Shown here piece by piece: positions 9,700 through 13,913 of a stretch of DNA of 23,456 nt (the first letter of the stretch is position 1; each line of letters begins with the position of its first letter). The position numbers were made by a program, and so were the translations under genes. The notes beneath the pieces are model-generated. The model saw nothing but the letters and a program-made list of their open reading frames with translations, had not been told where the DNA came from and did not search any database. This DNA comes from a virus (lineage: Duplodnaviria > Heunggongvirae > Uroviricota > Caudoviricetes), in IMG/VR virus record IMGVR_UViG_2526164646_000006. One strand, written 5' to 3'.

Positions 9700-9846
9700 A
9701 TGACAAAACAACTCAGTCCTTACCAGGACAAAATTCACAAACACATACTACGTGATCGCTTCCTGTCCAGCTTCAAGCAGCATGGTCGATTCCGGGCTGA
9801 GTTGGAAAAAGTGAAGCTGATGCAGAAGGAGAAAGGTCATGAGTAA
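9700..9846 (+). CDS. small ORF (48 aa) overlapping the O start
   Basis: ATG at 9700 preceded by GGGAG; basic peptide. Confidence 0.4.
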
Positions 9847-10675
9847 TCTTGCAACCGTAACACATTTAAGGCCTTCACAACGGCCTGTGGAGCGTCGTGT
9901 GGCAGAAGTTGAAGATGGTTATACCCGTCTTGCAAATGCCCTGTATGAAGAGCTTATCGGCGCAGATTTAACGAAAAATCAGAGCAAGGTTGCCCACGCC
10001 ATATGCCGTAAAACATACGGCTACGGTAAAAAGATGGATCGCATCTCTGATAGTCAGTTAGCTCAAATTACCAGGCTGCCAAGACAGAAGGTAAACAAGG
10101 CCAAGAATGAGCTTATCGCGATGAAGGTTATCCTTCGCGAAGGCCAGCAAATCGGGCCTAACAAGAACATCGAGGAATGGCAAATAGAAGGGTGTCACTA
10201 CTCTGGTGATAATGTCACTGCATTGGTGACAAAAAGTGTCACCAAAACAGGGACACACAAAAGAAACTATTACAAAAGAAAAAGAAATAATAAAAACACT
10301 ATGTCCGAAAGTGTTCGGACGGAGTGTGAAAAATCACATGACCGTCACGAAGAAACCGACAAGGCATTCGAGGAAATATTCTGGTGTGCAGGCATGCGGA
10401 AAGCCGGGAAGAAAAACGCAGCTTCGGCATTCAGAACACAGTTCAGGGAATGGCGTAAAACTACCAGGGGTACGGCAAGCGAGTTTGCCACGATGCTGGC
10501 AGAAGACATCGCATGCAGGAATGGTAAGCAGTTCGGATTCGACAGGTTGTTACCATCGAGCTACCTGAACGGTCAACGCTGGAACGACGAGAAGCCAGAA
10601 ACTATTCAACCACAATCCAAACCATCATCCGCAATCACCGTATCGAAAACTGGCTACGTGTTTTTCGACAGGTGA
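9839..10675 (+). CDS. O: replication initiator, lambda O-like N-terminal domain with an unrelated C-terminus
   Basis: N-terminus [13 protein letters not shown]...[32 protein letters not shown] resembles lambda O; iteron-like repeats lie inside the gene. Confidence 0.85.
10190..10300. other. putative replication origin: TGTCAC-N6-GTGACA-type iterons plus AT-rich tract
   Basis: Three palindromic ~18-bp units at 10193-10256, AT-rich run 10257-10300, inverted repeat 10303-10320. Confidence 0.5.
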
Positions 10676-10782
10676 ACCATGAAATCAAAAATCAAATCGC
10701 TACTGGTTGCTGGTTATAACCACGGCTGGTTAAGTATTTCGTTTGTCGATTTCTGGTTTAAAAATCTCAATCTGAGGGAATC

Positions 10783-12309
10783 ATGACGCCAAGTGAACTT
10801 AGCGACCTGCTTTGGGCGCAGGTTGACAGGGTGGCTCCGCACCTGTTGCCAAACGGCAAGAAAGAGGGGCATGAGTGGGTTGCCGGTAACGTCAATGGTG
10901 ACAAGGGAAACAGCCTTAAGGTCAACCTTAGCGGCAAGAAAAAATGGGCTGATTTCGCTGAGGGAGACGGCGGTGACATGCTTGATTTGTGGATGGCATG
11001 TCGTGGAATTAACCTGCATCAGGCTATGCAGGAAGCGAAAGCATTTCTCGGTATCAAGGATGACGATCACCATTTCGATGCCAAACGTGAGAAAAAATTC
11101 TCCAGACCTGATCGCAAGAAAATCGCCCGCTACGTTACCAGAACAGAATCCCATCTTGAGTACCTGCAATCGCGTGGCATATCGCCAGAAGTCGTAAAGC
11201 GCTACGAGGTTGTCAGCGGCAAGGTGTGGAATGGAGAACGAGAACTTGATGCACTGGTGCTTCCGTACAAACGCGATGGTGAGTTGTTGCAGGTCAAGCG
11301 AATCAGCACTGAGCGCCCGGACGGGAAGAAAGTCATTATGGCAGAAGGTGATTGCGAACCTTGTCTGTTCGGATGGCAGGCTCTGGACGCTGGCGTGAGG
11401 GCGGTTGTACTTTGCGAAGGCGAAATTGATTGTATGAGCTATGCGCAATACGGCATCTCGGCGTTATCCGTGCCGTTTGGTGGAGGGAAAGGCGCTAAGC
11501 AACAGTGGATTGAGTTTGAGTACCACAACCTCGACAGGTTTGAGGAAATATTCATCTCGATGGACGTTGATGATGTTGGTCGTGAAGCCGCAAGGGAAAT
11601 CGCAAGCCGACTCGGTGAACATCGTTGCCGTCTTGTTACTCTGCCGTACAAAGACATCAACGAATGCCTGATGAACGGTGTTACCGAGGATGAAATCTGG
11701 CAGTACATCGGCACGGCATCCTACTTTGATCCTGAAGAACTCTACAGCGCGCGAGAGTTTTACCAGGACACTATCAACGCTTTCTACGGCAAGCAGCAGT
11801 ATCTGTTTAATCCACCGTGGGAATCTCTGGCAGATAAATTCCAGTTTCGTGAGGCCGAGTTGACGCTGGTCAATGGTGTGAACGGTCACGGAAAAACGGA
11901 GGTTGTCGGGCATATGGCACTTGAGGCAATGCGTCAGGGTGTGAAGACGTGCATCGCGTCACTTGAGCTGAAGCCTGGTATTCTCCTTAAGCGCCTTACC
12001 CGTCAGGCGACGTGCTGCAAGATGCCGCCAGTGCTGGAAATTGACTCTGCATTTAAATTTTATGACGAAAGACTTTGGGTGTTTGGCCTGACTGGAACGG
12101 CGAAAGCCGACAGGCTGATCGAAATATTCGACTACGCTCGCCGCCGATACGGCATCCAGTTATTCATCATCGACAGCCTGATGAAATGCGGCATAGGTGA
12201 CGATGACTATAACGGGCAGAAAGCATTTGTTGACTCGATTTGTGACTTCAAAAACAAACAAACTCCCACGTCATTCTCGTTACTCACTCCAGAAAAGGAG
12301 ATAGCGAAG
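10783..12309 (+). pseudogene. bifunctional primase-helicase (Toprim + SF4 RecA-fold helicase, T7 gp4-like), 5' portion; frameshifted near 12262-12268 and cut by IS911
   Basis: Toprim motifs CEGEID...DVDD; Walker A GVNGHGKT; Walker B LFIIDSL; downstream motif [11 protein letters not shown] is only readable in the -1 frame. Confidence 0.85.
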
Positions 12310-12350
12310 TGAAGTGGCACACTGAATTTGGCCACCTGAACAGAGGTGAT

Positions 12351-12683
12351 ATGCTCACCTCAGAACAACACAGGTGCTCCAATGAAAAAAGAAATTTTAG
12401 CGCAGAGTTTAAACGCGAATCCGCTCAACTGGTTGTTGACCAGAAATACACGGTGGCAGATGCCGCCAAAGCTATGGATGTTGGCCTTTCCACAATGACA
12501 AGATGGGTCAAACAACTGCGTGATGAGCGTCAGGGCAAAACACCAAAAGCCTCCCCCATTACCCCGGAACAAATTGAAATCCGTGAGCTCAGGAAAAAGC
12601 TACAACGCATTGAAATGGAGAATGAAATATTAAAAAAGGCTACCGCGCTCTTGATGTCAGACTCCCTGAACAGTTCTCGATAA
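12351..12683 (+). CDS. IS911 orfA; the expected MKKRNF start at 12382 is out of frame in this copy
   Basis: Translation ...[21 protein letters not shown]...[14 protein letters not shown]; A AAA AAG slippery site at 12632-12638. Confidence 0.7.
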
Positions 12684-12709
12684 TCGGGAAACTCAGAGCG
12701 CATTATCCT

Positions 12710-13549
12710 GTGGTCACACTCTGCCATGTGTTCGGGGTTCATCGCAGCAGCTACAGATACTGGAAAAACCGTCCTGAAAAACCAGACGGCAGACGGGCTG
12801 TATTACGCAGTCAGGTACTTGAGCTACATGGCATCAGCCACGGTTCGGCCGGAGCAAGAAGCATCGCCACAATGGCAACCCGGAGAGGCTACCAGATGGG
12901 ACGCTGGCTTGCTGGCAGGCTCATGAAAGAGCTGGGGCTGGTCAGCTGTCAGCAGCCGACTCACCGGTATAAACGTGGTGGTCATGAACATGTTGCTATC
13001 CCTAACTACCTTGAAAGGCAGTTCGCCGTGACCGAGCCAAATCAGGTGTGGTGCGGTGATGTGACCTATATCTGGACGGGTAAGCGCTGGGCGTACCTCG
13101 CCGTTGTTCTCGACCTGTTCGCAAGAAAACCAGTGGGCTGGGCCATGTCGTTCTCGCCGGACAGCAGGCTCACCATGAAAGCGCTGGAAATGGCATGGGA
13201 AACCCGTTGTAAGCCCGGCGGGGTGATGTTCCACAGCGATCAGGGCAGTCATTATACGAGCAGGCAGTTCCGGCAGTTATTGTGGCGATACCAGATCAGA
13301 CAGAGTATGAGCCGGCGCGGAAACTGCTGGGATAACAGCCCAATGGAACGCTTCTTCAGGAGTCTGAAGAACGAATGGATGCCGGTGGTGGGTTACGTAA
13401 GCTTCAGCGAGGCAGCTCACGCCATAACGGACTATATCGTTGGATATTACAGTGCACTAAGACCGCACGAATATAACGGTGGGTTACCCCCAAACGAATC
13501 GGAAAATCGATACTGGAAAAACTCTAACTCGGTGGCCAGTTTTTGTTGA
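12710..13549 (+). CDS. IS911 orfB (DDE transposase, expressed as OrfAB by -1 frameshift)
   Basis: -1 frame relative to orfA; DDE-type catalytic region in translation. Confidence 0.85.
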
Positions 13550-13557
13550 CCACTTCA

Positions 13558-13913
13558 AAGAAAAACCAACCGGGAAAATGGACGTAAAAGGCTCTGGAGC
13601 GATAACAGACCTGACAGACAACCTTTTTATCATCTGGCGTAACAAGGCTCGCGAGAGAGCGTTACAGAGAGTTCAGAGTGGTGAAAAGATGTCAGAGAAG
13701 GACGAACAGCTACTGGCATCTCCGGCATCTGTTTTGATGCTTGAAAAACAACGTAACGGCGAAGGTTGGGAAGGTGGTGTCCCGTTGTTCCTTGACGAGC
13801 AATCGCACCAGTTCCTGCAACTTGAATCAGGATCGCCTTATAGCTACATCGCCAATATGCCGAAATCGGAATATGACGAGGCGTGGCGACAGGAAAACGT
13901 GACGGAGTATTAA
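13558..13913 (+). pseudogene. primase-helicase 3' portion (helicase C-terminal motifs) downstream of IS911
   Basis: EKPTGKMDVKGSGAITDLTDNLFIIWRNK...LEKQRNGE aligns with the gp4/DnaB helicase H3/H4 region and joins the pre-insertion frame across the duplication. Confidence 0.8.

Follow-up and report, generated by a model that had tools for sequence, protein, structure and literature searches.

The DNA examined here, hereafter the window, is 23,456 nucleotides (nt) long and is the whole of contig AGRC01000012.1 from the draft assembly of Shigella flexneri 6603-63. Over its full length (1-23456) it is a segment of a P22-like prophage resembling Sf101 and Sf6, running from the early-left genes through to the terminase. 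Two phage genes and one insertion sequence (IS) make up its replication module (Table 1). The upstream gene encodes a relative of the lambda replication initiator O and carries the origin iterons, while the downstream gene is predicted to encode a primase-helicase of the T7 gp4/Twinkle type and is interrupted by IS911. The module is very probably a recently inactivated copy of a replication module of lambdoid and P22-like phages. The type is already known: a T7 gp4-like primase-helicase encoded by the phage comes after an origin-binding protein resembling lambda O. Sf101, mEp043 and SEN22 carry intact copies of this module, which is widespread among E. coli prophages.

Table 1. Features of the replication module, in coordinates of the window (aa, amino acids; ORF, open reading frame)
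Feature	Position	Strand	Remarks
Replication module	9839-13913		two phage genes and one IS
O-like replication initiator gene	9839-10675	+	278-aa ORF, EJL17985.1
Origin iterons	10193-10211, 10213-10231, 10237-10255		three 19-bp palindromes TGTCAC-N7-GTGACA; spacing 20 and 24 bp
AT-rich unwinding region	10256-10299		almost base-for-base as ori-lambda (ACACAAAAGA.ACTATTACAAAAGAAAAA.GAAA)
Conserved C-terminal core domain of initiator	10346-10594	+	aa ~170-252
Terminal tail motif of initiator	10634-10672	+	13 residues; proposed docking peptide for primase-helicase
Primase-helicase gene, 5' part	10783-12309	+	codons 1-509 of 626; native frame to codon 492 only
Toprim domain	11407-11670	+	aa 209-296, in 5' part of primase-helicase gene
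Walker A, GVNGHGKT	11875-11898	+	Walker B also in 5' part
Frameshift site	12256-12258	+	A3 here, A4 in Sf101 and mEp043 (1-nt deletion)
Target-site duplication AAG (3 bp)	12307-12309 (left), 13558-13560 (right)		flanks IS911
IS911 (IS3 family), 1248 bp	12310-13557	+	interrupts primase-helicase gene after motif H3 and before H4
Primase-helicase gene, 3' part	13561-13913	+	codons 510-626 and stop; motif H4 (DVKGSGAITDLTD) and arginine-finger region FIIWRNK

In the N-terminal part of the initiator, residues 20-114 match the Pfam family Phage_rep_O (PF04492) with E=1.2e-37 and 128.8 bits, where the cutoff is 28.7; the NCBIfam family phage_O_Nterm (TIGR01610) is matched as well (105 bits, cutoff 45.5). 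The initiator is 53% identical to lambda O, with the similarity confined to residues 1-117, and 94.8% identical to Sf101 gp44, which is longer by 8 residues. Judged from these matches, the N-terminus is a lambda O-type winged-helix origin-binding domain. The start of the initiator gene is overlapped by 8 nt by a 48-residue ORF of the DUF2740 family (9700-9846), which is conserved in Sf101 and mEp043; the RefSeq name of the Sf101 copy, ‘tail protein’, is implausible at such a position.

The iteron pattern TGTCAC-N7-GTGACA occurs four times in the window against an expectation of 0.71, and none of 100 shuffled sequences contained at least four matches. Relatives of the module carry four iterons, spaced by 20, 24 and 23 bp, which is exactly the spacing of lambda. 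The fourth iteron of the relatives, 23 bp further on, has been removed here by a 23-nt deletion at 10236/10237, a length of exactly one iteron period. In addition, the A-run at 10279-10283 has five residues, one fewer than the A6 of all relatives. The undeleted 142-bp origin segment with A6 is present in all 80 close relatives in IMG/VR; 79 of these have four consensus iterons and the remaining one has a base change in the third. Together the two deletions remove 24 nt, so that the O reading frame is kept. A first-pass annotation of this DNA had described an initiator with an O-like N-terminal domain and with iterons inside its gene, and both features are confirmed by the family matches and the iteron array. 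Besides the N-terminal domain, the window shares with lambda the location of the iterons within the gene, the nearly identical AT-rich stretch and the position after cII. It differs in the iteron arms (TCCCTC in lambda, TGTCAC here), in an unrelated C-terminal domain of the initiator and in the replacement of P by a primase-helicase.

The domain type of the second gene was judged on its intact homologue, Sf101 gp45 (626 residues, encoded by a gene of 1881 nt), to which residues 1-492 of the window protein are identical. Against structures in the PDB, Sf101 gp45 matches T7 gp4 over residues 192-539, spanning both Toprim and helicase (E=2.7e-23), and it also matches Twinkle (E=6.5e-14). Pfam identifies Toprim_2 and AAA_25, with a match to DnaB_C slightly under Pfam’s own cutoff, and Toprim_2 is also found in the window fragment (E=2.8e-12). 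The protein belongs with PHROG_239, ‘DNA primase/helicase’ (E=2e-171), and tblastn detects about 26% identity to gene 4 of T7-like phages over residues ~110-538. In the alignment to gp4 the acidic residues of Toprim (EGE, DxD, KDxNE) are kept, as are Walker A and B, the H3 histidine, H4 and the arginine finger. These results support the first-pass description of the second gene as a gp4-type fusion of Toprim and SF4 helicase, and on sequence grounds it is assigned to the T7 gp4/Twinkle type of primase-helicase.

The N-terminal region of this protein is less typical. Pfam returns nothing for the first 200 residues at E<=10. A likeness to the zinc-binding/RNA-polymerase region of DnaG is apparent from TIGR01391 (residues 26-143, E=9e-10) and from a weak match to PDB 2au3. 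Residues 1-72 contain no cysteine, and in the DnaG-like zinc-binding region CxxC is replaced by ADFAEG. The loss of cysteines from the N-terminal zinc-binding region resembles that in metazoan Twinkle.

In the window the primase-helicase gene is broken by two lesions. Because of a one-base deletion, the native reading frame is lost at codon 493, so that helicase motif H3 (ILVTHSRK) falls outside it, and the resulting ORF (10783-12312, 509 residues) ends at a TGA which is the first triplet of IS911. The IS911 copy shares 99.8% identity across 1246 bp with the IS911 annotated in phage Sf6, and possesses terminal inverted repeats (TGAAGTGG...), orfA starting from the ATG at 12382, orfB extending to 13549, an A6G slippery site at 12632 and the transposase domains HTH_Tnp_1 and rve of Pfam. 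When the IS and one AAG are removed in silico, joining 12309 to 13561, the gene is still one base below the 1881 nt of Sf101 and mEp043; when one A is restored as well, a 626-residue protein is obtained which is 100% identical to Sf101 gp45, indicating that the decay is recent. Beyond the insertion, nt 13558-13983 are 100% identical to Sf101. The module lies in a 4.9-kb block which is 99.4% identical to Sf101 and contains only three indels, all within the replication module, while the other blocks of high identity have no internal indels.

The SF4 helicase motifs lie in one polypeptide in Sf101 gp45, whereas the frameshift in the window affects H3, and IS911 separates off H4 and the arginine finger, so that no functional helicase is expected from the gene. 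The first-pass annotation had treated 10783-13913 as one gene and had concluded that the phage brings its own helicase. The first of these statements fails because IS911 is inserted in the gene, and the second does not apply to this window, where the helicase gene is dead. Presumably this prophage copy is unable to replicate autonomously. The exact left IS911 junction was not found in contigs representing one genome per species, and no complete E. coli genome spans the junction.

The closest known counterparts are Sf101 (NC_027398, gp44-gp45) and mEp043 (JQ182734 / PV340537), which have the same gene order and are 99.0% and 98.5% identical, respectively, to the window at the nt level over cII, O and the primase-helicase gene. 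Unlike the window, both have four iterons, the A6 run and an uninterrupted 626-residue primase-helicase, and neither has IS911. The replication module of Sf101 has been reported to match that of mEp043 (PMC4159516). In the Salmonella phages S107, S135 and SEN22 the primase-helicase gene is 89-91% identical at the nt level and its protein about 94-95% identical.

More distant systems share parts of this arrangement. The window type and T7 gp4/Twinkle have in common the fusion of Toprim with a RecA-like SF4 helicase in which no catalytic motif is missing, as judged from the intact homologue, but identity to T7 gp4 is only ~26% and the cysteines of the zinc-binding region are lost in the window/Sf101 type. 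T7 replication starts at transcription-dependent origins, in contrast to the lambda-type origin and proposed recruitment by an initiator here. P22 and Sf6, with genes 18 and 12, likewise combine a lambdoid initiator with a phage-encoded replicative helicase and no loader (Sf6 annotation; PMC10307801). Their gp12 type, unlike the protein of the window, belongs to the DnaB family of helicases and lacks a primase domain, and neither Sf6 gp43 nor gp44 shows similarity to the window replication proteins. According to a title in the references of 10.1101/2020.10.05.325894, P22 gp12 acts together with host DnaG. The P22-like phages STMP5/17 and ES18 are described as having a relative of O and a primase-helicase in place of the DnaB-like helicase (PMC10307801); the likening of the ES18 module to that of the window follows this published description. 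The pairing noted in the first-pass annotation is not unusual, given the intact copies in Sf101, mEp043 and SEN22, its frequency in E. coli prophages and its published descriptions (PMC10307801, PMC8951638).

The right half of the window module corresponds to the Eru5 unit of Stx2 phages. Eru5 is a replication unit with Stx2a_F403 as its reference, in which an HTH_36 protein is followed by a primase gene, next to cI (PMC8951638). In Stx2a_F403 (AP012529), phi24B and Min27 the C-terminal half of the initiator is 95% identical to that of the window over residues 152-278, and the primase-helicase is 96-99% identical at the protein level. The Eru5 unit differs in that the N-terminus of its initiator is HTH_36 and that of the window Phage_rep_O, and in that its primase-helicase carries a 342-residue intein in Walker A. 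Its origin repeats presumably differ as well.

The C-terminal half of the initiator has no counterpart in lambda. BLASTP finds no similarity between it and the C-terminus of lambda O, the PHROG families matched by the two do not overlap, and a hidden Markov model of 147 diverse members of its family scores both lambda O and Sf6 gp43 below zero. It thus appears unrelated to the P-binding domain of lambda O at the level of sequence and profile, as the first-pass annotation had supposed. The region contains a conserved core domain for which Pfam returns nothing at E<=10 but whose family comprises 367 representative clusters (50% identity) at E<=1e-3. In members of the family the core is fused behind N-terminal DNA-binding domains of six or more kinds, HTH_36, DUF1376, Phage_rep_O and DnaD_N among them. 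The core region is 95% identical in the ‘O’ of phi24B, whose N-terminus is unrelated, and in phi24B and Stx2a_F403 the C-terminal half of O and the primase-helicase travel together behind such unrelated N-terminal domains. This places an exchange point just after the origin. Such a position is classical for lambdoid phages.

A primase-helicase gene follows O in 79 of the 79 close IMG/VR relatives whose contig continues past O (80 in total), and none of them has P. A first scan of viral contigs with the C-terminus of O yielded only relatives at least 98% identical, and so provided no independent test of linkage. The scan was repeated from an alignment that had a more distant family member at its head, and gave 80 diverse viral loci (L087-L166), of which 74 were informative. 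The gene downstream of the initiator is a gp45 homologue (49-92% identical) in 54 of the 74, a lambda-P-like loader (PF06992) in 5, a DnaC-like AAA+ loader in 5 and a gene of neither class in 10. One match, P0117, a protein of 6594 residues with ten weak matching stretches, is a G/D-rich repeat protein and was discarded as spurious.

What separates the partner classes is the extreme tail of the initiator, which follows a variable linker. Among the 54 initiators linked to a primase-helicase, 49 have a tail motif of the form ITVSK(T/S)G(Y/L)VF(F/Y); of the other five, one is a truncated ORF and four carry the variant FTPSNDGSSEIFI. The motif is absent from all 20 initiators that precede P-like, DnaC-like or other genes, and its variants track the divergence of the primase-helicase. 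Among the same diverse loci, initiators preceding DnaC-like loaders share a tail of their own, ...NF(G/S)ERDYG(K/E)QVIP(E/D)W..., and those preceding P-like loaders have acidic, Trp-containing tails, which suggests that there may be class-specific docking peptides for the loaders too. This correlation of tail motif and partner is the only new element of the analysis. A tentative proposal, held with somewhat less than even confidence, is that the C-terminal region has two layers: a partner-independent core and a short terminal peptide which would choose the partner that delivers the helicase, the tail motif selecting the gp4 type and acidic, Trp-containing tails selecting P-like or DnaC-like loaders. 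If this is true, partner choice at lambdoid origins would be predictable, and possibly swappable, from about 13 residues.

Starting from what was observed directly (the domain identities, the anatomy of the origin, the linkage of the two genes and the three lesions), a mechanism can be proposed for the intact module of Sf101 and mEp043. By analogy with lambda, the initiator would bind the iterons and open the AT-rich stretch. Its C-terminal region would then recruit the ring-shaped T7 gp4/Twinkle-type primase-helicase of the phage itself, with no P-DnaB complex involved, the likeliest contact being the conserved terminal peptide beyond the variable linker. By analogy with T7, gp45 is predicted to have helicase and primase activity and to load itself as a hexamer, after which it would unwind the DNA and prime synthesis. 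Host DnaB, DnaC and DnaG may then be dispensable for initiation.

Several points weigh against this account. A literature search found no experimental paper on the primase-helicase of the Sf101 gp45 type or on its module, and according to PMC8951638 nothing is known about how Eru phages replicate. Primase activity is uncertain, because the DnaG-like zinc-binding region is without cysteine. The core domain is not itself the partner-specific element, because it also adjoins P-like and DnaC-like loaders. An AlphaFold2 model of the C-terminal region of O, built from a 12-sequence alignment, is of low confidence (pLDDT 56) and consists of three helices followed by disorder. The role of the tail as a docking peptide for the primase-helicase is inferred from a correlation among related sequences, which are not independent events. 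Finally, because the assembly is a draft, the two single-A deletions could be sequencing errors, although such errors cannot account for the IS911 insertion or for the 23-nt loss of an iteron.

The last point leads to the reading in which both 1-nt deletions are homopolymer errors and only IS911 and the 23-nt deletion are real. Both are indeed losses of a single A within A-runs, and the source is a draft contig; they are nevertheless the sole single-base indels in the 4.9-kb Sf101-like block, and the O allele recurs in a second assembly, from run SRR060746, taken to be reads of the same strain. This reading is considered unlikely. Moreover, an erroneous A5 in O would mean that O itself is frameshifted, which leaves the module defective in either case. 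That the module still works is very improbable. On such a view the 509-residue product would serve in priming or loading while host DnaB unwinds the DNA, or IS911 would be excised on induction; the two compensating deletions that preserve the O frame are in keeping with it, as is the fact that Toprim and Walker A and B are still in frame. SF4 rings require H3, H4 and the arginine finger, as established from T7 gp4. In this copy the frame of H3 is lost, 1.25 kb of IS911 cuts off H4 and the arginine finger, precise excision of IS3-family elements is rare, and the origin has one iteron fewer than all 80 relatives. A functional module was rejected on the lost helicase motifs and the missing iteron. 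Least probable of all, and close to excluded, is that the second gene is a lambda P-like helicase loader and that the phage still depends on host DnaB. This would agree with names in the records (‘putative replication protein P’ for EJL17986.1; ‘P’ in phi24B and Min27) and with the position after O. The lambda P family PF06992 finds lambda P at E=6e-62 yet misses the second gene, matching neither the window fragment nor Sf101 gp45; tblastn with lambda P against the window gave only E values of at least 0.2; and the window contains no P-like or DnaB-like gene. The gp4 match across Toprim and helicase and the presence of all SF4 motifs also count against a loader. Placement in a helicase-loader family was what the first-pass annotation had named as counting against its own proposal, and the domain searches, which refute a loader identity, favour that proposal.

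For the contact between the two proteins, the alternative to the tail is that the conserved core is the surface which touches the primase-helicase. Phages whose initiators differ in unrelated N-terminal domains exchange core and primase-helicase as a unit, and a primase-helicase lies downstream in most of the informative diverse loci, both of which would be expected if the core made the contact. A core with identical invariant residues, however, stands beside P-like loaders of PF06992 at 5 loci and beside AAA+ loaders of the DnaC-like kind at 5 others, and among these loci the tail alone differs by class. Contact through the core is therefore thought somewhat unlikely, and docking through the terminal peptide is provisionally preferred.

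As a discovery the module is of little weight: intact copies from several phages have already been sequenced and annotated, and publications describe its type. It does show that the GenBank label ‘replication protein P’ is wrong for the primase-helicase gene in the source genome, in phi24B and in Min27. Its family also takes in the Eru5 unit, carried by Stx2a phages from severe outbreaks of enterohaemorrhagic E. coli. IS-driven decay is typical of Shigella genomes, and the replication defect of the S. flexneri 6603-63 prophage fits this pattern. The tail-motif correlation offers an inexpensive starting point for studying how an origin protein recruits a phage helicase.

The primase-helicase gene is repeatedly struck by selfish elements. 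In the ‘P’ gene of phi24B (HM208303; L004, 4109-5134), and also in L007, L032, Min27 and Stx2a_F403, the intein of the same primase-helicase is inserted between K and T of GHGKT. It contains Hint and LAGLIDADG homing-endonuclease domains, begins with Ala and ends with HN, followed by Thr, features that would fit a non-canonical intein class. A second, independent insertion of the IS911 family is present at 5286-6537 of L042, within the Toprim DxD motif, immediately after MDVD. In six relatives (L017, at 4498-4992, and L022, L038, L043, L072 and L076) the initiator and the primase-helicase have between them a 164-residue ORF that contains an HNH-type motif (HINGDKSDN) and overlaps the beginning of the helicase gene; from its sequence it looks like a free-standing homing endonuclease.

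Just past the primase-helicase gene, positions 13984-14681 of the window have no match to Sf101, so that a mosaic joint lies where the nin region begins. Of two small ORFs in this stretch, one occupies 13990-14196 and the other, at 14214-14528, matches the Pfam family Phage_phiTE_015.

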